Origin: an uncultured Clostridia bacterium
GTDB taxonomy: Bacteria > Bacillota > Clostridia > Christensenellales > CAG-314
Assembly (NCBI GenBank): GCA_947625725.1
Contig: CANQPI010000001.1
Coordinates: 22,085-86,084 of the forward strand
Reading direction: 5' to 3'
Length of the DNA stretch: 64,000 bases
Shown: in pieces, positions 4,872-33,378 of the stretch
Position numbering within the stretch: position 1 is the first letter of the stretch
How the letters are laid out: each line of letters starts with the position of its first letter
The notes under the pieces: model-generated
Told to the model about the DNA's origin: nothing
Database searches by the model: none
The model's input: only the letters and a program-made list of their open reading frames with translations
Position numbers and translations under genes: made by a program

Positions 4872-6299
4872 TTATATGTTACCTTTGTTTAACAAGCGTC
4901 TAATGTCTATTTGACACTTGGACGTATAGTGAGCAATGTACGAATCTATCGTATCAGGCTCAATAGAATGACAATAGGAAATCTCTCCCGCGAGAGCTTG
5001 TATATCTTTGCTGTCCCAAGTGCGTCCGTTTTTGTAGTCTGTACCCAGTGCGAACAACGCAGTTTTGAGATGCTTTTTACGCTTGTATCCAACCGTGATG
5101 TTATTATCTTGGTTGAGCATCAATCCGAGGTTCCAGTTGCGTCCAGCAGATGAACCATAGCGAATTTTCTTGTTGCTAAACGTGAAAGGAGCACCGGCTT
5201 TTTGCAGGATTTCAAGCAATCCACACAAAACTTTAGTGTGATGTTTATCTTCTTCAATCATTGCGTTTAGAATGTTCCTGAATTTAGGCGCGCTGTCCTT
5301 GGTGATTTGGATTGTTTCCATTGTAACTACGCTGCTAGGATGATTTTCTTTGAAACGCTTGAGCGATGCGGTCGCCGCCTCTTGCTTATCTCGATAAATT
5401 ACGGGCACGTTGTCTACCGAAATTTTGAATATGGGGTAAGGAACGTATCCATTTTCATCGGGATTTTTTACATACTTCAGGCTCTCGACAATCCTTGCGT
5501 GGGACATAATTCGTTGTATTGCGTAATTTTCAAAGTCGAATTGACTCGATAATTGGATGTCGTCTGCGAACCTTGTATAAATCAAGTGCGGCTGGTGATC
5601 TCTTGCAAACTTGGCAATGGAATGGTCGATCGGAATCATGAGAAGATTTGTAAGCATCGGACTTATCGGTGTTCCTTGTGGTAGTCCGCCGTTCAAGAAA
5701 CAAATCGACAAGGCTTTTTGCAACTGTTCGCGCCCCTCTTCTTTTCCCAGAACAAGGTTAAATGGATAGATGAGAGAAAGCATCTTGATTGCAAAATCCA
5801 TCGTTATGCTTCCAAAGAAATCGTGGAAATCAGTTTTGAGAAACCAACGCGAGTTGTTGGCTTGATGTCGCCGTAGCGCATCAATCGGGGAGCGGTTTGG
5901 GATATAAGCAAAAGCAGAAGTGTGGTAGTTTGCAAAGAACGAAGTCTTCAGCAAATATGCCAACGTTCGTTGTGCCTCCATGAGGTCGTCATTTGGCGCA
6001 TCGATTCGTCTCAAGCCGCCGGTCTTTTTGGGTATGGGGAACGAGTGGTAAAAAACTGATTTGTCCTCGGCATCAATAAATTTTTTGAAGTGGCTGTTGA
6101 ACCCCATGAGTTTTCGAATGAGTTCATTGACGTCGACCTTGTTAATTAAGCGTTGCGGAGTTATTTCTCGATATATGGTTCGCGTGTCTCTTGTATCTTT
6201 AGAGGACGTTTCAAAGCAATTTGAATTAACACCTTGTAGCAAATCGTCAAATGAAACTTGCACTTCGCGAGGTTGAATATAATATGTAATATACGGCAT
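4872..6299 (-). CDS. reverse transcriptase, retron/unknown-group (UG/DRT)-like
   Basis: IPKKTGGLRRIDAP, YIPNRSPIDALRRH, FLKTDFHDFFGSI, LPQGTPISPMLTNLL, YTRFADDIQLSS in canonical order; TAGGAG RBS. Confidence 0.9.
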   Translation of the reverse strand: MPYITYYIQPREVQVSFDDLLQGVNSNCFETSSKDTRDTRTIYREITPQRLINKVDVNELIRKLMGFNSHFKKFIDAEDKSVFYHSFPIPKKTGGLRRIDAPNDDLMEAQRTLAYLLKTSFFANYHTSAFAYIPNRSPIDALRRHQANNSRWFLKTDFHDFFGSITMDFAIKMLSLIYPFNLVLGKEEGREQLQKALSICFLNGGLPQGTPISPMLTNLLMIPIDHSIAKFARDHQPHLIYTRFADDIQLSSQFDFENYAIQRIMSHARIVESLKYVKNPDENGYVPYPIFKISVDNVPVIYRDKQEAATASLKRFKENHPSSVVTMETIQITKDSAPKFRNILNAMIEEDKHHTKVLCGLLEILQKAGAPFTFSNKKIRYGSSAGRNWNLGLMLNQDNNITVGYKRKKHLKTALFALGTDYKNGRTWDSKDIQALAGEISYCHSIEPDTIDSYIAHYTSKCQIDIRRLLNKGNI

Positions 6300-15683: not shown

Positions 15684-16436
15684 TTATTTTTTCACCCTTC
15701 TGAAGCCGTCAATTCCATATTTGCCGTTTGTAAGCAGGCGATATGCGACATCAACTAGGATGCGAAGCAAGTAGGTGTCATTCGACACGCGAACCGTCAA
15801 GCGCGCCTTGTTGCTCTTTTTACCATATAGGTCATCGAGATACGCGACGTCGTGGGTGTTGCATCTAGTCAAAGCACAACCCTCGGGCAGTATGTCGTCA
15901 AGTATGCCCTGAAGCAGTTTGACTACTTTGGTATTGCTATCGGGCGTCCCGCCCATTTCGATTTTCTGTGCTGCTTCGCGCAAGTAGTATGTTGTTGCAA
16001 TATCCTTCGCGGGTATGCCCAACGATTTAGCGGCACGCAAGCATAGCAATTGGTTAAGTTTGCTTACGGAATGCGCCCATTCCGTATCGATTTTTGCCCT
16101 CTTGCAAAATGCAAGCAGGTTGATTTGACGCTCTTTGTCGACCAATTCGACCGAAATGACCGCATTGGCGTTTGTCTTGTCGTGGGATTCGTGATGCCCA
16201 AATGTCTTGTATGCGTATGCCTTGATAACATCAGGCACGGCATTTTCGGTGCCTATGAACTTGTCATAAAACGCATTGGCAGCCATCTCGCCATACTGCT
16301 TCTCTAAGGCAACAAGGTTGTCCATAGATGTACTGTATGCCGCGCTGTCGACTGGTTTTTTGCCAAGTATAGCGTTGACCTCTTTGACAGCATCACGCAA
16401 TTTCGCCTCGACCGTTTCCATTGTGATTTGTTCCAT
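15684..16436 (-). CDS. hypothetical protein
   Basis: Start at M11 (AAGGAG + 9 nt); 250 aa. Confidence 0.75.
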   Translation of the reverse strand: MEQITMETVEAKLRDAVKEVNAILGKKPVDSAAYSTSMDNLVALEKQYGEMAANAFYDKFIGTENAVPDVIKAYAYKTFGHHESHDKTNANAVISVELVDKERQINLLAFCKRAKIDTEWAHSVSKLNQLLCLRAAKSLGIPAKDIATTYYLREAAQKIEMGGTPDSNTKVVKLLQGILDDILPEGCALTRCNTHDVAYLDDLYGKKSNKARLTVRVSNDTYLLRILVDVAYRLLTNGKYGIDGFRRVKK

Positions 16437-16461
16437 AATAAAACACTCCTTGAATGTATTA

Positions 16462-16542
16462 GGCAATCAGTTGGCTGCTATGCCATCCACGCCCGCCGCT
16501 GGGAGGCTTGCCTGTGGGCGCGAGGCTTGCATATAGCAAGCC
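16462..16542 (-). repeat. two-hairpin leader motif, copy 1
   Basis: GGCTTGC-tatat-GCAAGCC then CGCCC-[acaGGCAAGCCTCCCAGCGGC]-GGGCG, about 25 nt upstream of the RBS of gene 15684-16436. Confidence 0.6.
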
Positions 16543-16556
16543 CAAAGGAGGAAAAA

Positions 16557-16655
16557 ATGAAAAGGCTATGCCCAAGTGGCACAGTATTGACCGTTACGCA
16601 ATATGGTCACTTCATCACCAAACAAATACCATTGCTTGGCGGTAGAGAATTTTGA
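16557..16655 (+). CDS. possible 32-aa ORF antisense to 16566-16712
   Basis: AAAGGAGG 5 nt upstream of ATG; MKRLCPSGTVLTVTQYGHFITKQIPLLGGREF. Confidence 0.2.
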   Translation: MKRLCPSGTVLTVTQYGHFITKQIPLLGGREF

Positions 16656-16712
16656 TGACTTTTTGCCCGTACATTTATTGATGAACAAATACGTCGCTCT
16701 TTGTTTTAACAT
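16566..16712 (-). CDS. possible 48-aa protein
   Basis: Start at M19 (AAGGGG RBS), preceded by motif copy 2 just as gene 15684-16436 is preceded by copy 1. Confidence 0.35.
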   Translation of the reverse strand: MLKQRATYLFINKCTGKKSSKFSTAKQWYLFGDEVTILRNGQYCATWA

Positions 16713-16733
16713 AATCCGATCCCCTTGTTGTAA

Positions 16734-16825
16734 GGCAATCAGTTGACTATAACGCCATCCACCCACGCCACAGGGAGGCTTGCCATTGTGGGCAAGAGCC
16801 GCATATCATAAGCGACACGCGGCTC
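16734..16825 (-). repeat. two-hairpin leader motif, copy 2
   Basis: GAGCCGC-16 nt-GCGGCTC then GCCCAC-[aatGGCAAGCCTCCCTGTGGC]-GTGGGT, then ..TGGATGGC..CAACTGATTGCCT shared with copy 1. Confidence 0.6.
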
Positions 16826-17265
16826 CCAATATACCCGCATTGATGAAATGCGGAAGGAATTGTTTGATTATGTGTTGTTTGAAGTCTATACATATACATT
16901 ATCTAAAACATCAAAATGTACGCAATGCCCCTTGGGCAAGTGCGTAGTTCCCCTGCTGGCAGATTTTGATAACCGCCACGCCATAGCATTGCTTGAATAC
17001 TATGTGTATAACGGCTAAAAGGGTAGATGTTACGCAATGTACTTCTAAGACCGGCAATGTCCGCAAGCCGCGTTTAGGCTATCGCTACCTGTTGCCGTTT
17101 TCACTAACCGACACGCCGCAAGTCTACACCTATGCGGCTGAACCGTCGCCTTATTGCGTTTAAGGTTACGCTATGGTAATTCTATCGCCAACCATAGTTG
17201 GCTATAGCAACTTGCCGAATAGGTATCGTGCTATTAAAATAGTCGAACTTCTGACCTATTCGTTG

Positions 17266-17329
17266 CCCGCCCTACGCCACTGGGAGGCGTTGCTACGCAG
17301 GGCATAAGTCACCGCCGCACTATGCGGCG
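17266..17329 (-). repeat. two-hairpin motif, copy 3 (more divergent)
   Basis: CGCCGC-atagt-GCGGCG then GCCCTGCG-[tagCAACGCCTCCCAGTGG]-CGTAGGGC. Confidence 0.5.
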
Positions 17330-17344
17330 ATGACGCTCGTATGG

Positions 17345-17494
17345 TTACAAAGTTTCGTTGTATGTGCGCTCGAAGTCATCACGCAAGGCTATGCCTTCGG
17401 CATCATCGGGATTGATTGCAAGCAATGCCCGAATGGCACGCCGTGTCATCTCCTTGGTATCCTGCCGCGCCCTAATCTGTTGGGCAATGGTCAT
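17345..17494 (-). CDS. possible 49-aa protein
   Basis: AGGAGG 7 nt upstream of ATG; MTIAQQIRARQDTKEMTRRAIRALLAINPDDAEGIALRDDFERTYNETL; below the track cutoff. Confidence 0.45.
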   Translation of the reverse strand: MTIAQQIRARQDTKEMTRRAIRALLAINPDDAEGIALRDDFERTYNETL

Positions 17495-17528: not shown

Positions 17529-17599
17529 GCCGTTCGGTTGCCGTTGGACGGTTGCCACTATAAGGGACGAGCCGTCAACCCCTTTAGGGGTTAGGTTGC
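17529..17599. repeat. 71-bp dispersed direct repeat, copy a
   Basis: Identical to 17668-17738; contains GGTTGCC x2, CCGTTGGACGG, GACGAGCCGTC and the AACCCCTTTAGGGGTT palindrome. Confidence 0.9.
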
Positions 17600-17667
17600 G
17601 GCACCCCCCCCACACACGCGAGGGGTGTCGGCACAGCCTGCCCACATAGGCGGGCGCCGTCGTGGTT

Positions 17668-17738
17668 GCCGTTCGGTTGCCGTTGGACGGTTGCCACTAT
17701 AAGGGACGAGCCGTCAACCCCTTTAGGGGTTAGGTTGC
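17668..17738. repeat. 71-bp dispersed direct repeat, copy b
   Basis: 71/71 identical to 17529-17599 by direct comparison. Confidence 0.9.
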
Positions 17739-17879
17739 TCGCGGTGGTGGGTGTTCTGGTCGCCCCCTTCCCCTGCACCCTATCCCCCACCGACGTACGC
17801 ACACGCTCGCGGTGGTGGGTGTTCTGGTCGCCCCCTTCCCCTGCACCCTATCCCCCACCGACGTACGCACACGCTCGCG
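17738..17879. repeat. 68-bp tandem repeat, 2.1 copies; C-rich on plus strand, G4-type motif on minus strand
   Basis: Units 17738-17805 and 17806-17873 identical. Minus strand reads GGGGGATAGGGTGCAGGGGAAGGGGG in each unit. Confidence 0.9.
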
Positions 17880-17896
17880 TGTGTATATGTGTGCGT

Positions 17897-17932
17897 AAAA
17901 AAAATCCCGCAGGGATTTTGCACCCTGCGGGA
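17897..17932 (-). terminator. strong intrinsic terminator after the HTH gene
   Basis: Minus strand TCCCGCAGGG-tgcaaaat-CCCTGCGGGA followed by T8, 17 nt after the stop of 17949-18809. Confidence 0.8.
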
Positions 17933-17948
17933 CTGCGTTTCAACCCCT

Positions 17949-18809
17949 TTAGGGGTTGATGCGTGGCAAGTTCGTTTTGTCGGTTCCACCGAGATTTTCA
18001 ATCTCGGTGCGTATCCAAGTGCGTACCTCGCTTGCCATCGCTGATACGCGTTGCTTGCTTATAGCAAGCAATTTGGCGGTTTCAGCCGTTGGCTTTTTGA
18101 GTACTACGTACTCAAAGCACTTCCAGCGTTTGGCGGTAGCGTAGGGGTGCTTGCGTTTGACTTCGTCAAACGCGGCGACGAGCGCGTTGCCCTGCTTTGG
18201 CGTGGAGAAGTATTTCTTTGCCCCTAAAGGGGGCAAAGAGCATTCGTCCTGTTCGGGTTCAACCCCTTCGGGGTTGAGCGAGCAAATTTGCTGAGTGGCG
18301 AACCTAAGGTCACGGTCGCAAACCTCTTCCTTCGGAAGAGTTTTGCGGTCACGGCTCTTGTAGTCGTCACGGCTGTCGATTGCTTTAGCAATCGCCTCGA
18401 ACCCTCGCGTGATTGCGTGCGCGACGTTGCCGTCCCTGACAGCCTCGCACACCGCGAGGACGAAGTCCTCGCGCCATTCTTGCACCTCATTCGTAAGTTC
18501 TACGAACTTACGGGCACTGTCCACGAGGTCGTAGGGCAGGTATGCGTTGCGTGCGAGCGTTGCGTGCTTGCTTGCGACGGCGGCGGCATAGTGCAGGAAG
18601 TCGAGATGCCCGAAGTAACCTACCTCTACGAGGTAGGTTAGGTCGTCGATTGGGTAGCACTCAAGACTAAAAGTCTTGGCGAGTTCAACGAGGCGGCTGA
18701 GTTCGGCTTGCAGGTGGCTCTCACGGACTTCGTCCGTGAGGCTGTCGTCTGCGAGGGTTGCAATGACTTCGTCATTGGCGATTGCGTTTGTTTGTTGGCT
18801 GTGTTTCAT
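17949..18809 (-). CDS. HTH protein with sigma-70 region-4-like C-terminus
   Basis: Start at M31 (AAAGGAG + 5 nt). C-terminal FEYVVLKKPTAETAKLLAISKQRVSAMASEVRTWIR resembles sigma region 4 / LuxR-type HTH. GC-rich codon usage unlike neighbours. Confidence 0.6.
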   Translation of the reverse strand: MKHSQQTNAIANDEVIATLADDSLTDEVRESHLQAELSRLVELAKTFSLECYPIDDLTYLVEVGYFGHLDFLHYAAAVASKHATLARNAYLPYDLVDSARKFVELTNEVQEWREDFVLAVCEAVRDGNVAHAITRGFEAIAKAIDSRDDYKSRDRKTLPKEEVCDRDLRFATQQICSLNPEGVEPEQDECSLPPLGAKKYFSTPKQGNALVAAFDEVKRKHPYATAKRWKCFEYVVLKKPTAETAKLLAISKQRVSAMASEVRTWIRTEIENLGGTDKTNLPRINP

Positions 18810-18908
18810 TTTTGCTCCTTTGCCCCTACGGGGCAACCAACCGTCCGTGGCTTGCGTACCCCTTTGGGGTAGCGGTTGGCTCGGTGGGCTGGCTCCCACC
18901 TTGCCACC

Positions 18909-18917
18909 ATTGTACCA
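18909..18917 (-). promoter_or_regulatory. possible extended -10 (TGGTACAAT) for the HTH gene
   Basis: TGnTAcAAT on minus strand about 100 nt upstream of the ATG; three small hairpins in the leader. Confidence 0.3.
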
Positions 18918-19003
18918 CGCCGACGGCGGAATGGCGCAACGGATTTGCAGAGCAAATCCCGTGACGGGCGCGATAACTCACTTCGCGAGTGCATACGCCT
19001 AGG

Positions 19004-19080
19004 CACGCTAATATCCCACTTCGCGGGCGGGCGGGCGCTTGCACGCTAATAACTAACTCTCGCGCGGGCGCGGGCGGGCG
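19004..19080. repeat. 38-bp imperfect direct repeat x2 with GGGCGGGCGGGCG tracts
   Basis: CACGCTAAT at 19004 and 19042, each followed by a CGCGGGCGGGCGGGCG-like run. Confidence 0.6.
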
Positions 19081-19354
19081 TCTATCCTTGTCGCGCGCAC
19101 ACGTGCGGGCGCGCACTTAAGGTTTATTATTTCTTGGATATTTTGTTTGGGAAGTAACGTGGACGTGGGTTGCCTGTCGCTCTTGGGGGTAGGGGGTTGA
19201 GGGTATTATAAAATACTTAGTGGAAATCAAAGATACAAGAGGGTTTGCCGTCGTGGGGTTGGCGGTGTGGTAGTTGCTTGTTTGCTCTCTGGCGGTGGCA
19301 CTTTGCCACCGAACTCGCGGGGAAATAGTATATATAAAAATAAATAATTCGGGG

Positions 19355-19376: not shown

Positions 19377-19704
19377 TTGATATTATCTTTTTAGCGTAGA
19401 TAATATCGCAGGGCAGGGGCTATTTTACACATAAATTTATTATATAAATACACCAAAACAATATGTCAGTTCTCCTTCCATCCCACCAAAAAATCCCCGA
19501 CATTTTTACCCCAATTTTCCTCGAAACTCCGTTCGGAGATCTATCGTACACTAGGGAAAGTTTGCTCTCATGCAAATTGCCCTCGTTATCAAATACCCCG
19601 GGGTACAATTACACAAAAGCCCGCACAGTAGGACAAGTTGTCGAAGACGACAAAAAAAGCCCCTTTTATATAGATATAAGTTATGCTTATTTACGACAGT
19701 AAAA

Positions 19705-19750
19705 CTATCTACTATAGGGGTAAAGTATAAGCTATCTACACAGGGGTAAA
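19705..19750. repeat. direct repeats CTATCTAC-N2-3-AGGGGTAAA x2 (iteron/operator-like)
   Basis: 19705-19724 and 19732-19750 in the AT-rich divergent region. Confidence 0.6.
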
Positions 19751-19780
19751 CTATATATTAGTATATTAGAGTACCCAAGT

Positions 19781-19823
19781 AACAGAGAGTACAAATAATA
19801 GTACACACTAAACAGAGAGTACA
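19781..19823. repeat. direct repeats AACAGAGAGTACAA x2
   Basis: 19781-19794 and 19811-19823; additional AGTACAC words nearby. Confidence 0.6.
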
Positions 19824-20002
19824 ATTAAAATAAAAAAAATAAAAGAAAGATTTACATCAGTAAACATATAGTACACAAGATATGCGTATATAACTAATAG
19901 CTAAATACGCGTACTTATATTATGTTTACTAATAAACTATTTAATATTAGATAAATATTAGAAAAAAAATATAAATTTTTCAAATAAATTATTAAAAAAC
20001 TA

Positions 20003-20031
20003 TTGACAAGTACTCAATTATGTCGTATAAT
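20003..20031 (+). promoter_or_regulatory. sigma-70-type consensus promoter (TTGACA-17-TATAAT) for the rightward arm
   Basis: TTGACA 20003-20008, 17-nt spacer, TATAAT 20026-20031, AT-rich upstream. Confidence 0.7.
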
Positions 20032-29395: not shown

Positions 29396-29404
29396 GTGGG
29401 CGCA

Positions 29405-30397
29405 ATGAAGAAACTTGATGCGATCACAAGTGCCGAATGGGGTGAGGTGTGCGACTTTAACAAACAATTGTTGGAGTCGTTCCTATGTGACTCGGTGGAA
29501 CTTTCGGAAAAGTCCAAACGAGCCTATGAGTCAAATCTTAAAATATGGTTTGTCTGGGTAAAGAACAACCTCGGCAACAAGTCACAAATTGACATTAAAC
29601 CTTTGGATTACAAAAGATTTCAGAATTGGATGGTAAACAGAGGCTGTTCATCAGCCGACGTTAACAACAAAAGAGCCGCAATTTCTTCTCTGAACGGATA
29701 CATCGAGATTTATTTTCACGACACATATCCCATGTTTCGCAACTTTATCAACAAATCTATCAAGCGCCCGCCAACAAAGGTCGTGCGAGAGAAGATACCA
29801 TTAACGAAAGCGGAGTTTCGGCATCTGGTGGATGAGTTGCGAAAGCGGGGCGAATATCAAATGGTGGCATATGTACTATTCACATTTGACACAGGATGCC
29901 GCAGAGAGGAAAGCCGCCAACTCACAAAAGATGTGGTCGCGGCAAACCCAATTATCGCTCGTCGCTCGGTGATAGATGATGAGGGGAACTCCGTCGACAA
30001 GGAAATTCGGCTGTACCACACAAAACCCATCCGATGCAAAGGGGCTAAGATAAGGCGATTGACCTTTGGAGAGGAAGCGATGATTGCTCTCAAAGAGTGG
30101 CTTGACGTCCGCGGAGATGACGATTGCCCCTATATGTTTGTGTCTAAATATGGCGGCGTTACCAAGCAAGTGAGCGAAACCACGTTCAACGCTTGGTTCA
30201 CCAATACGATTTCGCAGATAGTCGGACGCTCCGTTCATCCCCACACCCTCAGAGCGAGCAGGGCCACGCAAGCCGTCGTGGAAGACGGGAAAGATGTAGA
30301 GGCGGTGCGCCAACTACTTGGACACGAAGACCAAAGCACGACGCTTAATTACTATATCGTTAAGGAAGACGATGACGATGTAGGTGATTTGTTTTAG
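29405..30397 (+). CDS. tyrosine recombinase / phage integrase family
   Basis: HPHTLRASRAT and LLGHEDQSTTLNYY (R..HxxR..Y catalytic set). Confidence 0.85.
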   Translation: MKKLDAITSAEWGEVCDFNKQLLESFLCDSVELSEKSKRAYESNLKIWFVWVKNNLGNKSQIDIKPLDYKRFQNWMVNRGCSSADVNNKRAAISSLNGYIEIYFHDTYPMFRNFINKSIKRPPTKVVREKIPLTKAEFRHLVDELRKRGEYQMVAYVLFTFDTGCRREESRQLTKDVVAANPIIARRSVIDDEGNSVDKEIRLYHTKPIRCKGAKIRRLTFGEEAMIALKEWLDVRGDDDCPYMFVSKYGGVTKQVSETTFNAWFTNTISQIVGRSVHPHTLRASRATQAVVEDGKDVEAVRQLLGHEDQSTTLNYYIVKEDDDDVGDLF

Positions 30398-30451: not shown

Positions 30452-31597
30452 ATGAAGCCAAATAATTTCGAGCGAACCGCCCTTCAGGGCGAAAACTTGC
30501 TTGAGCAAACAATAAATTTACGCAAAAGGCCCCAAAGAATAGCCAAAGATTTCTCATATCCCCATATTCAGCAGCAGGAAGTTGACTCTCAGCGCAAGTA
30601 CTATTGTACATGCTGTGGCAAATCTTATACGGCACAACAGGGCAACTTTATTGCTGCCAAGAACTCCATACTTTGGCAGGGCAACAACGGTTATATACCG
30701 GTATGCAAAACTTGCGTTAAGGCTATATACAATTCGTTCGTAGATTTTTTTGAAGGTAATGAGGAACACGCACTCGAAAGAATGTGCCAGATTTTCGATT
30801 TGTTCTACGACGAAGCGGCCTCGGCAATGACATTAAAGGACACTCACCTTGGTCAGCCGCGCATAGCGTTATATCCGTCTAAAGTCAATACAAGGCAGGT
30901 CGCTCAACGGGGACAGACCTACTTAGATACGATACGGGCAGATGTTGCTAACAGGCACGTAATAAGAGACGATGAAGATATGCAGGCTCACGTTGAGTCT
31001 TCAAAAGTAAACGGGGAATCCGGAGAGTTTGTTGTAACCGACGAAATGATTGCTAAATGGGGCTACGGCTATCAACCCAGGGACTACCAATACCTAGAAG
31101 TCGAAGAGGCTGACTGGCGGTCAAGGGTAGAGTGCAAAACAAAACCCCAAGAGCAACTCATACGCTCAATTTGTCTTGCGCAGCTTCAAATCCGCGTGGC
31201 ACAGCTCAGCGGCAAGTCTGCAGATGTAGCAACAGCTCAGAAAACATATGTAGACTTGTTGTCCGCATATAACGTGCTGCCGAAGCAAAATGCAGTTGAT
31301 GACGACAAGAACCAAGTTACACTTGGTACACTTATAAAAAAATGGGAAGAAGAAGAGCCAATTCCTGAGCCCGACGAAGAATGGAAAGACGTAGATGGTA
31401 TTCAGCGGTATGTTGATGTCTACCTCTATGGGCATTTGGCAAATCTTGCGCACTTACCCAATGCGAACGAAGAGGCTTATCGCAAAGAGATGGAGAAGTA
31501 TACTGTAACGCCGCCCTCCTATGAAGGGGACGGAGATAGTATCGATGACACATCCCTCGTTGATAAACTTGCCACCAAAGGGGGCGGCAACAAATGA
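30452..31597 (+). CDS. hypothetical protein; position suggests small terminase or packaging accessory
   Basis: AAGGAGGG RBS; Cys cluster CTCCG...CKTC; stop overlaps the TerL start. Confidence 0.55.
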   Translation: MKPNNFERTALQGENLLEQTINLRKRPQRIAKDFSYPHIQQQEVDSQRKYYCTCCGKSYTAQQGNFIAAKNSILWQGNNGYIPVCKTCVKAIYNSFVDFFEGNEEHALERMCQIFDLFYDEAASAMTLKDTHLGQPRIALYPSKVNTRQVAQRGQTYLDTIRADVANRHVIRDDEDMQAHVESSKVNGESGEFVVTDEMIAKWGYGYQPRDYQYLEVEEADWRSRVECKTKPQEQLIRSICLAQLQIRVAQLSGKSADVATAQKTYVDLLSAYNVLPKQNAVDDDKNQVTLGTLIKKWEEEEPIPEPDEEWKDVDGIQRYVDVYLYGHLANLAHLPNANEEAYRKEMEKYTVTPPSYEGDGDSIDDTSLVDKLATKGGGNK

Positions 31598-33378
31598 GCC
31601 AACCTGAGGCGGTCGCGTCGGCAATGGTACAGACCGATGCCGAGATTATACGAGAAAAGCACCAAAAGACGATGCGTGCGGTAGCCAAGTGGGTTTCCTT
31701 TTATAGGGCAAACCCACATAGGTTCGTTAGGGACTATCTGGGAGTTAAACTTTACCCGTTTCAACAAATAATAATCAAAGAGATGTTCGAGAAGGTGAAC
31801 ACAGTCCTCCTTGCCTGTCGCGGTATAGGCAAGACTTTTTTATTTGGGGTTTTTTGCTCGGGATATTGCATCCTGTACCCCGGAACAACTATTTGCATTG
31901 CCTCAAAAACAAGAGGGCAAGCCGCTGAGGTAATAGATAAGGTGCAGTTGCTCATGGTGGAATCTCCGAACCTTCGCTCTGAGATTGTTGAAATAAAACG
32001 GAACGAGAGAGAAGCCAGCATTACATTCCGTAATGGATCGGTCGTCAAGGTGGTCACTTCATCTGATAACGGGCGTCACAATCGTGCGACCGTATTGATT
32101 ATCGATGAGTTTCGTATGGTTGACAAAAATACGATTGACACCGTGTTGAAAAAGTTTTTGACATCATCGCGTATGCCGGGCTATTTGCGCAAACCGCAAT
32201 ATGCAGACTATCCCAGGGAGAGAACGAAGGAACTTTATGGCAGCAGCTGTTGGTATGAATCGCACTGGTCTTATGAGTTAGTCAAATCTTACATCTCCAA
32301 CATGATGCGCGGCAGGAGTTACTTTTGCTGCTCTCTGCCATATCAGTTGGCGATAAAAGAACATATCTTGGAGCGCGAACGCATCGAGGACGATATGTCT
32401 GAGTCGACGTTCAACTCCATGACATTTACAATGGAAATGGAGTCATTGTTCTGGCGTCAAGGCGAAGGCGGGCTTTATAACTTTGATGATATCAACAAAA
32501 CGCGCGTTCTGGAGTATGCATTTTACCCCAGAGAAGAGGTGATGCACGTCCCAGATAAGAGGGTACACATACCACCAAAACGCCCCGAGGAAATTCGAAT
32601 TCTTTCTGCCGATATTGCATTGATGGCTTCGACCAAAAGCAAAAACGACGCCACATCTATTTTCATCAACCAAATGCAGCCATTGTACAACGGACGGTAT
32701 TCTAAGAATATAGTTTACGCAACTAACAACGAGGGACTCCGAACAGAGGTTCAAGCACTGGTAATTCGTCGCTTGTTTGACGAATTCGATTGTGATTATT
32801 TGGTAATTGACGTCAAGGGCCTGGGTATTGGCGTGGTGGACGCATTGATGGGGGATATATATGATGCAAGTTCTGGCATTACATATCCTGCTCTCAGCTG
32901 TTGTAACGACGATACTATTGCTCAAAGGTGTGCGATAGCGGATGCGCCCAAAAAAATTTGGGCGGTGCAAGGGTCGCCAGAGTTCAACTCACAATGCGCG
33001 CTGGCACTGAGAGAGGAGTTTAAGCAGGGGCGATTGCACTTATTGGATACGGACATTGAGATTGAAAATACCTTAAGGGAACTCAAAGGGTATTCATCGT
33101 TGACACCTGCCGAGCAGGCAACATTACAGCTTCCGTATGTACATACAACCCTTTTGGTCAAGGAATTGGTTGACCTGGAATATGAAACGAGAAACAACGT
33201 CATCCGGGTAAAGGAAAAGCCCGGGCGGCGTAAAGACAGATATAGTAGTTTGAGCTACAACGTTTACGTCTCTAATGCCGTTGAGCGTTCATTGGCTCAA
33301 TCTACAAGACAAAATATTTCGGAGGCGCGAATCCGTTGGCGCGTGCCCCAATTATACAAAAATAAAGGAGGTTATTGA
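31594..33378 (+). CDS. terL: terminase large subunit
   Basis: Walker A-like ACRGIGKT, Walker B VLIIDEF; size and position upstream of the portal gene. Confidence 0.85.
   Translation: MSQPEAVASAMVQTDAEIIREKHQKTMRAVAKWVSFYRANPHRFVRDYLGVKLYPFQQIIIKEMFEKVNTVLLACRGIGKTFLFGVFCSGYCILYPGTTICIASKTRGQAAEVIDKVQLLMVESPNLRSEIVEIKRNEREASITFRNGSVVKVVTSSDNGRHNRATVLIIDEFRMVDKNTIDTVLKKFLTSSRMPGYLRKPQYADYPRERTKELYGSSCWYESHWSYELVKSYISNMMRGRSYFCCSLPYQLAIKEHILERERIEDDMSESTFNSMTFTMEMESLFWRQGEGGLYNFDDINKTRVLEYAFYPREEVMHVPDKRVHIPPKRPEEIRILSADIALMASTKSKNDATSIFINQMQPLYNGRYSKNIVYATNNEGLRTEVQALVIRRLFDEFDCDYLVIDVKGLGIGVVDALMGDIYDASSGITYPALSCCNDDTIAQRCAIADAPKKIWAVQGSPEFNSQCALALREEFKQGRLHLLDTDIEIENTLRELKGYSSLTPAEQATLQLPYVHTTLLVKELVDLEYETRNNVIRVKEKPGRRKDRYSSLSYNVYVSNAVERSLAQSTRQNISEARIRWRVPQLYKNKGGY

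Follow-up and report, generated by a model that had tools for sequence, protein, structure and literature searches.

What are perfectly repeated, GC-rich sequences doing between a putative regulatory gene and a phage operon? The question is raised by a locus in contig CANQPI010000001.1 of an uncultured Clostridia bacterium, of which we analyzed a stretch of 64,000 nucleotides (nt), hereafter the window, to which all window coordinates refer. Between a helix-turn-helix (HTH) gene and an open reading frame (ORF) of 49 amino acids (aa), both on the minus strand, the window carries two identical 71-nt repeats and a tandem array of 68-nt units. The answer we favor, at a probability of roughly one half, is that the 71-nt repeats are tandemly duplicated, factor-dependent promoter/operator modules, here called R, for a leftward minus-strand operon.

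Structure of the repeat array

The direct repeats at 17529–17599 and 17668–17738 are identical at 71 of 71 positions, as a sequence-only reading of this DNA had stated, and have a spacing of 139 nt. The 68-nt unit runs head to tail for 2.1 copies with 100% matches, as also described there, although its start is 17737 and not 17738. The same reading counted GGTTGCC twice in each 71-mer, which is correct, and a third copy lies just beyond the second 71-mer. Apart from these array repeats, the window has no perfect repeat of 30 nt or more. Exact copies of the palindrome AACCCCTTTAGGGGTT are found in both 71-mers and again at 17942–17957, giving 3 exact sites in the window against a chance expectation of 0.33 matches with up to 3 mismatches allowed, and the hairpin AACCCCTAAAGGGGTT with its accompanying R box is confined to 17.5–17.96 kb. 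The array itself is 63–67% GC and sits in an island of 55–67% GC, compared with about 45% elsewhere.

Read in the transcribed (minus-strand) sense, the array opens with the 68-nt upstream module (17805–17872 and 17737–17804, preceded by a partial copy at 17873–17879, as delimited by repeat detection). This is followed by R unit 2 (17668–17738), the upstream copy, which contains a hairpin at 17716–17731, the R box TTGACGGCTCGTCCCTTATAGTG at 17695–17717, and then GGCAACC-type leader repeats. A GC-rich spacer of 68 nt (17600–17667), with a terminal G8 run about 10 nt upstream of the next hairpin, leads to R unit 1 (17529–17599; hairpin 17577–17592, R box 17556–17578), the copy closest to the 49-aa ORF; the order R, spacer, R is also present in contigs L005 and L006. 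The placement of the array between the terminator of the HTH gene and the 49-aa ORF, likewise proposed earlier, stands. On one side is a strong minus-strand intrinsic terminator (17895–17934) with a 12-bp stem (17934–17903) followed by T8, and equivalent terminators are found in relatives. On the other is the ORF (17345–17494, minus strand), which has an AGGAGG Shine-Dalgarno sequence and is lineage-specific, as relatives have unrelated small ORFs or none at the same position. The third copy of AACCCCTAAAGGGGTT (17942–17957, minus strand) overlaps the stop codon of the HTH gene; after it comes a degenerate R box, TTGAAAcgcaGTCCCgcAggGTG, which supplies one half of the terminator stem. A promoter scan at this third copy returns TTGAAA-17-CAAAAT.

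The repeats are real. Several samples yielded independent short-read assemblies of this phage that are 99.96–100% identical to the window and break inside the repeats. In Logan contigs (k = 31) the breaks fall at 17850 and 17558, precisely 30 nt (k−1) into the repeats, and these ends are therefore breaks in the assembly graph and not physical DNA termini, by which physical genome ends at the array were rejected. Two contigs of the same phage (L007 and L010) follow a collapsed single-R path. Because assemblies break inside the repeats, the true copy number could exceed the assembled one, and the array in the window may be under-assembled. Two further candidates were discarded. A CRISPR mini-array or solitary repeat would require repeats of 23–48 nt, whereas here 71-nt repeats flank a single 68-nt spacer; the sole CRISPR match, to CRISPR-DR25, lies on the third hairpin and scores 19 bits, well short of its gathering score of 36. 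Protein-coding repeats do not fit a 68-nt period, which is not a multiple of 3.

Conservation of the R unit

Relatives were found by hairpin scans of public collections and from the genomic contexts of homologs of the adjacent HTH protein, and they come from Clostridia and Christensenellaceae metagenome-assembled genome (MAG) contigs of 120–280 kb. At least seven diverged lineages of SPbeta-like Clostridia phages share the same architecture and conserve the R core, which bears out the earlier view of the repeats as a cis-acting element rather than a product of chance. In the transcribed sense, these loci begin with the HTH gene and a terminator. A GC-rich upstream module may come next, then two or more R units and in some cases a small ORF, and after these a hepatitis delta virus (HDV)-like ribozyme, a conserved RNA block, two more ribozymes, and a conserved 250-aa gene. 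R lies downstream of the HTH gene (sigma-like, as discussed below) and its terminator, oriented toward the downstream RNA and genes, in the window and in L012/L065, L018, L086, L029, L030, L082 and L084. In relatives that have no small ORF (L026, L029, L082 and L084), R is found 120–200 nt upstream of a RAGATH-16 RNA.

In the R core, TTGAC overlaps the 16-bp palindrome AACCCCTAAAGGGGTT, and GC, CCCT and a TnnAGTG box come after it in this order. In full it reads AACCCCTAAAGGGGTTGAC[G/A/C]GC-nnn-CCCT-T-n-n-A-[G/A]-n-G and is followed by a low-complexity leader of the ACGGCAACC/CCGACC type. The 19-mer AACCCCTAAAGGGGTTGAC, which comprises the hairpin and TTGAC, is invariant across lineages, including its UAAA loop, while the adjacent proteins are merely 31–44% identical to that of the window. 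The GGCAACC sub-repeats, spaced 11 and 14 nt apart in an iteron-like manner, are not conserved between lineages.

The length of the repeated unit differs from lineage to lineage. The window has two copies of a 139-nt unit, and L030 has two of 112 nt. Units of 101 nt are present in L012/L065 (at least 2.2 copies), L018 (2 copies) and L086 (at least 3), units of 79 nt in L082 (at least 3), L084 (2) and L085 (at least 3), and units of 78 nt in L029 (at least 2). The encoded protein is the same in L084 and L085; their apparent difference in copy number is uncertain, as L085 contains a scaffold gap. Inside each genome the R copies are 100% identical, even in segments that are not conserved between lineages. 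Identical copies per genome together with lineage-specific unit lengths (78–139 nt) indicate that R arrays undergo concerted evolution and that their multiplicity is maintained. The earlier explanation of the identity by recent duplication or homogenization agrees with this pattern in every relative, and its expectation that the repeats recur in close relatives holds for R, which is repeated in all of them, but not for the duplication of the 68-nt unit, which is found in the window only. Ongoing unequal recombination or replication slippage within the tandem array would account for the identity of the copies, with no special homogenizing machinery.

R is also present outside the large phages. 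Clostridiales MAGs contain small integrated elements in which a single R unit with the same orientation separates tRNA-Trp (attL) from a tyrosine integrase (L031 5368–5400, L033 1563–1595, and L034 7449–7485). A search of metagenomes with the 19-mer gave 47 matches, most of them unrelated and mostly marine junctions between a hairpin and a promoter. In another unrelated contig with the 19-mer (L011 773–830), it abuts a canonical TTGACT-18-TGcTATGAT promoter, and hairpin/−35 junctions may be a recurrent design. A megablast of a phage collection with 15–21 kb of the window and scans of viral contigs with the GGTTGCC-rich part of R both returned no match, and the palindrome AACCCCTAAAGGGGTT was not found in the literature searched.

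The adjacent sigma-like gene

The gene upstream of the array (17949–18809, minus strand) encodes an orphan HTH protein of 286 aa from its ATG, and the ORF remains open to a GTG at 18899. A single-sequence homology search recovered the query alone, and peptide-seeded searches with the 286-aa protein and a 260-aa protein gave no match. A profile search of 5.8 billion proteins returned 17 clusters, and 30 representatives came from an exhaustive search with HMMER; no Pfam domain was found in the family, distant members included. The conserved C-terminal HTH (RWKCFEY.VL..EIA.LLAISKQ..S) has weak, sub-threshold matches to Sigma70_r4 (Pfam, E 0.058), GerE and TIGR02937 (sigma70-ECF), the last of these in 7 of 17 family members with a best E of 0.029, also sub-threshold. 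In an AlphaFold2 (AF2) model with a pLDDT of 76, both helical domains exceed 90, and the top Foldseek matches in the PDB and BFVD (a viral library) are mostly sigma factors (E 6e-3 to 0.7, TM 0.2–0.3). These include sigma32, WhiG/sigma28, sigmaE, sigmaH, phage gp79 and phage ECF-type sigmas, none of which is significant alone. Taken together, the model and the profile matches suggest that the 286-aa protein is probably sigma-like.

The hairpin of R reappears at the start of this gene in several relatives. Upstream of the sigma-like gene in L012, L018, L086 and L087, the hairpin with TTGAC[A/G] stands before TATAAT or TATCAT at a distance of 17 nt, with TG in the spacer; by its composition and spacing, this site is predicted to be the canonical promoter of the gene. 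As the hairpin and TTGAC[A/G] are shared with this promoter, the TT of the hairpin 3′ arm would be the start of the −35 box. The 3′ part of R also matches the 5′ leader of the sigma-like gene.

The region upstream of the gene in the window (18900–19300) is GC-rich and non-coding and contains a 38-nt tandem repeat (19003–19076) and a G-rich segment with a GC skew of +0.44 (19100–19300). Within it, at 18941–18959, the palindrome GGATTTGC-AGA-GCAAATCC stands beside a TGgTACAAT extended −10. Similar hairpin-rich regions about 1 kb long are found upstream of the sigma-like gene in relatives. The ORF itself contains stable tetraloop hairpins at 18221–18232, 18259–18277 and approximately 18325–18350, for example AAAACTCTTCC-GAAG-GAAGAGGTTT, which encodes KTLPKEEV, and these are conserved both as hairpin and as peptide in L018 and L029.

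R as a proposed factor-dependent promoter

We propose that the sigma-like HTH gene would be transcribed by the host sigma-A RNA polymerase, which would stop at the strong terminator. The sigma-like protein, or another phage regulator that recognizes the invariant palindrome, would then direct initiation at R; the adjacent 286-aa protein is the obvious candidate for this factor. If the TATAGT-like box of R acts as the −10 element, the −35 position would land on the hairpin loop and 3′ arm, TAAAGGGG, which would explain the invariance of even the loop. The 68-nt units would serve as an upstream accessory module that happens to be duplicated in the phage of the window. In a variant of this scheme, the palindrome would be a repressor operator, by analogy with SPBRE/MrpR of SPbeta. 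In favor of the promoter reading are the invariance of the 19-mer beside diverged proteins, the fixed placement and direction of R, its hairpin shared with the predicted promoter of the sigma-like gene, the match of its 3′ part to the leader of that gene, its position before RAGATH-16 and integrase genes, its confinement to one locus in the window, the concerted evolution of its copies, the sigma-like adjacent protein and the candidate ribozymes downstream. In addition, consensus scans from the terminator to the downstream genes in the window, L084 and L018 found no sense-strand promoter of the sigma-A type. A T7-like promoter was also considered and set aside, as the 927-aa ORF of the window has no single-subunit RNA polymerase domain.

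Several points weigh against the promoter reading. In a sigma-A promoter, 16–18 bp separate the −35 and −10 boxes, and the second and sixth bases of the −10 are A and T; in R, TTGACG and the TATAGT-like box are only 10 nt apart, there is no −10 at 17 nt, and position 2 of the box varies (A/G/T). To read R as a promoter therefore calls for a specific alternative factor, which is hypothetical. The promoter reading is a prediction from sequence comparison, and tandem units that each have a 16-bp palindrome would also suit a centromere or an iteron array. Because the 19-mer is shared by about 40 unrelated loci, mostly marine (L035–L081), the hairpin plus TTGAC alone is not diagnostic. The sigma-factor assignment is built on sub-threshold matches (best Foldseek E 6e-3); sigma region 2 was not found in the 286-aa protein at the sequence level, and the 17-member alignment, used as a profile against PDB sequences, gave no match. 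Finally, the promoter of the sigma-like gene in the window has a different palindrome (18941–18959), and the pairing of palindrome and protein is therefore not universal.

A more ambitious version of the promoter reading, which we consider doubtful, is that R is the cognate promoter of a new, tiny family of phage sigma-like proteins, with the −35 determinant inside the invariant DNA hairpin TAAAGGGG. The integrases of the tRNA-Trp elements would then be under the same module, such that infection or induction of the large phage would trigger their excision in a sigma-based helper-satellite circuit, and the G-quadruplex (G4) module and the copy number would tune output.

The 68-nt unit and its G-quadruplex motif

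Each full 68-nt unit consists of an alternating purine/pyrimidine stretch, a G4-type motif and a C-rich tail. The motif, GGGGGATAGGGTGCAGGGGAAGGGGG, is a pattern match on the minus strand at 17763–17788 and 17831–17856, and each copy has four runs of at least 3 G with loops within 1–7 nt, the canonical G4 pattern that had been pointed out in each unit before. No further canonical (G3+N1-7)x4 motif is present on either strand of the 64 kb; shuffled sequences average 0.33 (window) and 0.11 (GC-rich island). When the unit is folded as RNA with G4-enabled ViennaRNA, the G4 enters the minimum free energy (MFE) structure (−25.4 versus −21.7 kcal/mol), and the C-rich tail can pair with the G-tracts to form a competing hairpin. 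From this modeling, G4 formation by the 68-nt unit is plausible.

In relatives the motif takes the form CGTC..GGGG(G)ATAGGG(G)-3/4 nt-GGGG(G)AAGGGGG after an alternating purine/pyrimidine stretch, and in the window, L012 and L018/L086 it precedes the first R hairpin by 23–30 nt. None of the four G-tracts is lost in these three lineages, and variation is mostly in the central loop and in tract length. The module is single in L012 and L018/L086 and duplicated solely in the window phage; L030 has two G-runs instead, and L029, L082, L084 and L091 have none. This distribution argues that the G-tract unit is an accessory, clade-specific part and not the core of the element, and G4 formation cannot be the core function of the locus.

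Candidate ribozymes and RNAs downstream of R

The ORF-poor stretch 16461–17303, downstream of the array, holds three candidate HDV-like ribozymes, all on the minus strand. The first, rz1 (17204–17303), has a long P4 and a predicted cleavage site 5′ of G17303. The other two are minimal forms, rz2 (16734–16793) just upstream of a small ORF (16711–16566) and rz3 (16461–16521) in the 5′ untranslated region of the 250-aa gene. Only rz1 matched Rfam (HDV-F-prausnitzii, 29.3 bits, E 0.011), below the gathering score of 44. The ribozyme core GCCTCCCNNNGGC occurs exactly three times in the window, all at rz1–rz3, and each candidate parses with a descriptor into P1, P2, P3, P1.1 and J4/2, with the expected C in J4/2. 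The loose descriptor alone is unspecific, matching shuffled sequences 0.6 times on average.

Comparative evidence comes from an alignment of 11 copies, namely rz2/rz3-type sequences from the window and four related loci plus rz1 of L018; the window's own rz1 lies outside this alignment, and its assignment is based on the descriptor parse and the weak Rfam match. Within the alignment, 97.2% of cells are paired versus 31–47% for slid partners, seven pairs show compensatory changes, and the covariation score of 0.497, compared with 0.153, is reached by 0 of 500 shuffles. A G1.U wobble is present in 7 of the 11 copies. The covariation strongly supports the double-pseudoknot fold predicted for the candidate ribozymes. 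Relatives carry two or three HDV-like ribozyme candidates at matching positions. The four matches of the rz2/rz3 pattern in viral contigs (L022–L025) fall in coding DNA and were rejected as due to chance.

Between rz1 and rz2 lies an RNA block of the RAGATH-16 type (17089–17165, minus strand). The window copy scores 21.5 bits against RAGATH-16 (RF03047), short of the gathering score of 65.6, whereas RNAs at the syntenic position in L026 (213–284), L029 (7868–7939), L082 (6354–6425) and L084 (6227–6298) score 65.8 bits, above it. The block aligns with these relatives over long invariant stretches, and we regard it as a diverged homolog, not a formal family member. The first large gene of the leftward operon is the conserved 250-aa gene (15684–16436, minus strand), whose homologs, with 37–53% identity, are found downstream of the arrays in L026, L030, L065 and L018. 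Internal terminators are present within the operon.

If R is indeed the start of this operon, the transcript would comprise the GC-rich leader and the small ORF and would be cut by the three ribozymes into four pieces. The first would be the leader with the mRNA of the 49-aa ORF. The second, about 510 nt, would contain rz1 and the RAGATH-16-type RNA, and the third, about 270 nt, rz2 and a small ORF. The fourth would be the mRNA of the 250-aa gene and beyond, with rz3 retained at its 5′ end, and transcription would continue into about 16 kb of accessory genes.

Alternative explanations

The sequence-only reading had offered a replication origin, a packaging site or a centromere-like site, and these suggestions fare poorly against directional units, a hairpin shared with promoters, integrase contexts, a GC-rich array and a sigma-like protein. 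In the origin model, which we judge unlikely, R units would be iterons bound by the adjacent HTH protein as initiator, and the G-rich strand, as G4 or R-loop, would aid priming in the manner of ColE1 or mitochondrial conserved sequence block II (CSBII). Tandem identical units that each carry a binding-type palindrome and lie directly downstream of a DNA-binding protein gene are what such a model expects, as is a G-rich sense strand after the terminator. The cumulative GC skew also reaches its minimum near 17–18 kb, but this coincides with the switch in gene orientation and is uninformative. Iteron origins combine short repeats of about 17–22 bp in helical phase with an AT-rich region and an initiator gene. 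The units here are far longer and vary in length (71 or 78–139 nt, depending on the boundaries taken), the array has no AT-rich unwinding element at 63–67% GC, and it is instead a zone 2 kb away, at 19698–19966, that contains AT-rich 26- and 30-nt repeats. The strict orientation of R to downstream genes, the single unit upstream of an integrase, an adjacent protein that is sigma-like and not Rep-like, and the absence of the G-tract from about half of the lineages all argue against an origin as well.

An element acting at the RNA level, such as a put-like antiterminator, a 5′ stabilizer hairpin, a protein sponge or an RNA G4 regulator, also seems unlikely. The region folds better than shuffled sequences on both strands (z −3.6 and −4.2), the invariant UAAA loop would be unusual for the center of a DNA operator, and the G4 enters the predicted MFE of the 68-nt unit. 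The internal terminators of the operon would need antitermination, and the surrounding DNA is rich in structured RNAs. The 6-bp hairpin, however, is the sole helix of R that the lineages have in common, the R box (CCCT..TnnAGTG) is conserved as sequence and not as pairing, and R matches no Rfam family. The array also follows a strong terminator, and in relatives the same hairpin is the −35-flanking element of a DNA promoter.

Neutral duplication, by which one R and one G-tract module would be functional and the extra copies recent slippage products, is improbable for the locus as a whole, and its two parts stand differently. For the 68-nt unit it is plausible, with a single G-tract unit in L012 and L018/L086 and a duplication only in the window. 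The perfect identity of the copies, which implies very recent events, and the collapsed single-R path in the two same-phage assemblies (L007, L010) would also suit it. For R it is unlikely: none of the phage lineages examined has fewer than two R units, and the unit boundaries (78–139 nt) arose independently, a point that applies to R and not to the 68-nt unit and that argues for maintained multiplicity.

A partition site is quite improbable. The 16-bp palindromes would here form a sopC-like array bound by the adjacent HTH protein for plasmid-like upkeep of the prophage, and the tandem units do each carry one palindromic site downstream of a binding-protein gene, as in F sopC; Clostridioides phage-plasmids are among the distant relatives. 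Against this, no ParA-type ATPase or ParB family was recognized in the flanking proteins scanned, which are a subset of the window ORFs, the protein is sigma-like rather than ParB-, ribbon-helix-helix- (RHH-) or KorB-like, and the units keep a fixed orientation tied to downstream genes, with a single unit before the integrase in integrated elements.

Least probable is a pac site for the small terminase: repeated binding motifs are common in pac sites and the counterpart of the SPbeta packaging-start region is about 2 kb from the array, but the position analogous to SPbeta is the AT-rich divergent zone and not the array, the large terminase gene (31594–33378) is 14 kb away, the contigs end exactly k−1 nt inside the repeats as graph breaks do, and R also lies upstream of integrases in small elements.

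Genome context

The window belongs to a large phage, with minus-strand accessory genes at 1–19 kb and plus-strand genes after a divergent zone. This zone (19698–19966) is extremely AT-rich (18–26% GC), with 26-nt and 30-nt tandem repeats, and is a better candidate for an origin or pac site than the GC-rich array. A perfect TTGACA-17-TATAAT promoter facing right follows at 20003–20031. The plus-strand genes encode a YonV-like protein, with 37–40% identity to those of SPbeta-like Bacillus phages and Clostridioides phage-plasmids, the 927-aa ORF, a tyrosine-recombinase-family protein and the large terminase. Pfam and PHROGs searches with the flanking proteins gave nothing useful near the locus.

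Two further genes were noted. A 333-aa Phage_integrase-family protein (29396–30397, plus strand) is encoded inside the structural/late region and may function either as an integrase or as a repressor of the MrpR/YopR type. The leftward operon that contains the 250-aa gene also encodes a reverse transcriptase of 475 aa (RVT_1, E 2e-19; 4872–6299, minus strand), which may be of the retron, UG/Abi or diversity-generating retroelement (DGR) type. A DGR template/variable repeat (TR/VR) pair linked to this gene was considered and rejected, as no such repeat was found in the window.

Implications

Tandem promoter/operator repeats, phage sigma cascades, G4 motifs and HDV-like ribozymes are each of an already known kind, while their combination in one cassette and the sharing of a hairpin-containing R module with integrative elements appear to be undescribed. 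Should the promoter reading be true, an orphan family of sigma-like proteins would be paired with a precisely defined and highly conserved DNA target, and the orphan RNA motif RAGATH-16 would gain a promoter, a genomic context and defined processing sites. HDV-like ribozymes, whose biological role in bacteria has so far been hard to pin down, would act as punctuation that divides a phage operon leader into separate RNAs. The presence of R before the integrases of small elements points to a testable way in which large gut phages and satellites could influence each other. In practice, metagenomic assemblies of these phages break systematically at the array.

Comparison with known systems

Phage middle and late promoters are read by phage sigma factors and activators, as with gp28 and gp33/34 of SPO1 and MotA/AsiA of T4, and T4 MotA middle promoters have an upstream box about 12 bp from the −10. 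Like these cascades, the present locus combines a regulator gene under a canonical host promoter with promoter-like sites that are non-canonical and have no host −35/−10 geometry, and, as with the MotA box, the upstream box of R is unusually near its −10-like box. Unlike in SPO1 and T4, R occurs at one locus in tandem units of 71–139 nt with an invariant 16-bp palindrome, its candidate regulator comes from an unannotated family of about 30 sequences, and R is a predicted promoter.

Among SPbeta-like phages, the closest parallel is SPBRE, a 15-bp motif over about 10 promoters of early genes in Bacillus phage SPbeta that is paired with MrpR (PMC10516654). Both are short, invariant, repeated elements of an SPbeta-like phage, and the window also has a tyrosine-recombinase-family gene (29396–30397). 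Unlike SPBRE, R is restricted to one locus and is not a dispersed operator, lies inside long tandem units, and has a conserved downstream box. In SPbeta itself, the packaging start maps to a divergent intergenic region at the early/late boundary (bioRxiv 10.1101/2021.11.22.469490). YonO transcription starts in a 1.7-kb non-coding, unannotated gap between yonN and yonK (NC_001884 59152–60834, L092); this gap contains a DUF3800-VIII RNA above its gathering score, and no similarity was found between the YonO promoter region and R.

The array resembles F sopC and iteron arrays in its near-identical tandem units, each with one palindrome, directly after a DNA-binding protein gene. It differs from them in that no partition ATPase or Rep is recognized, it is GC-rich and fixed in orientation, its unit length is not conserved, and single units stand before integrases. 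The 68-nt unit is like promoter-proximal G4 motifs in having four G-tracts of at least 3 with loops of 2–4 nt on the non-template strand, about 25–30 nt upstream of a hairpin, and is unlike typical ones in being absent from about half of the related lineages and in having a C-rich tail that competes for pairing. Lastly, minimal HDV-like and theta ribozymes have been described in gut phages (PMC10879173). The candidates reported here share with these HDV-like ribozymes a nested double pseudoknot, a G1.U wobble and a reduced P4, but instead of being located beside tRNAs, the three of them punctuate one operon leader around a small RNA and small ORFs.

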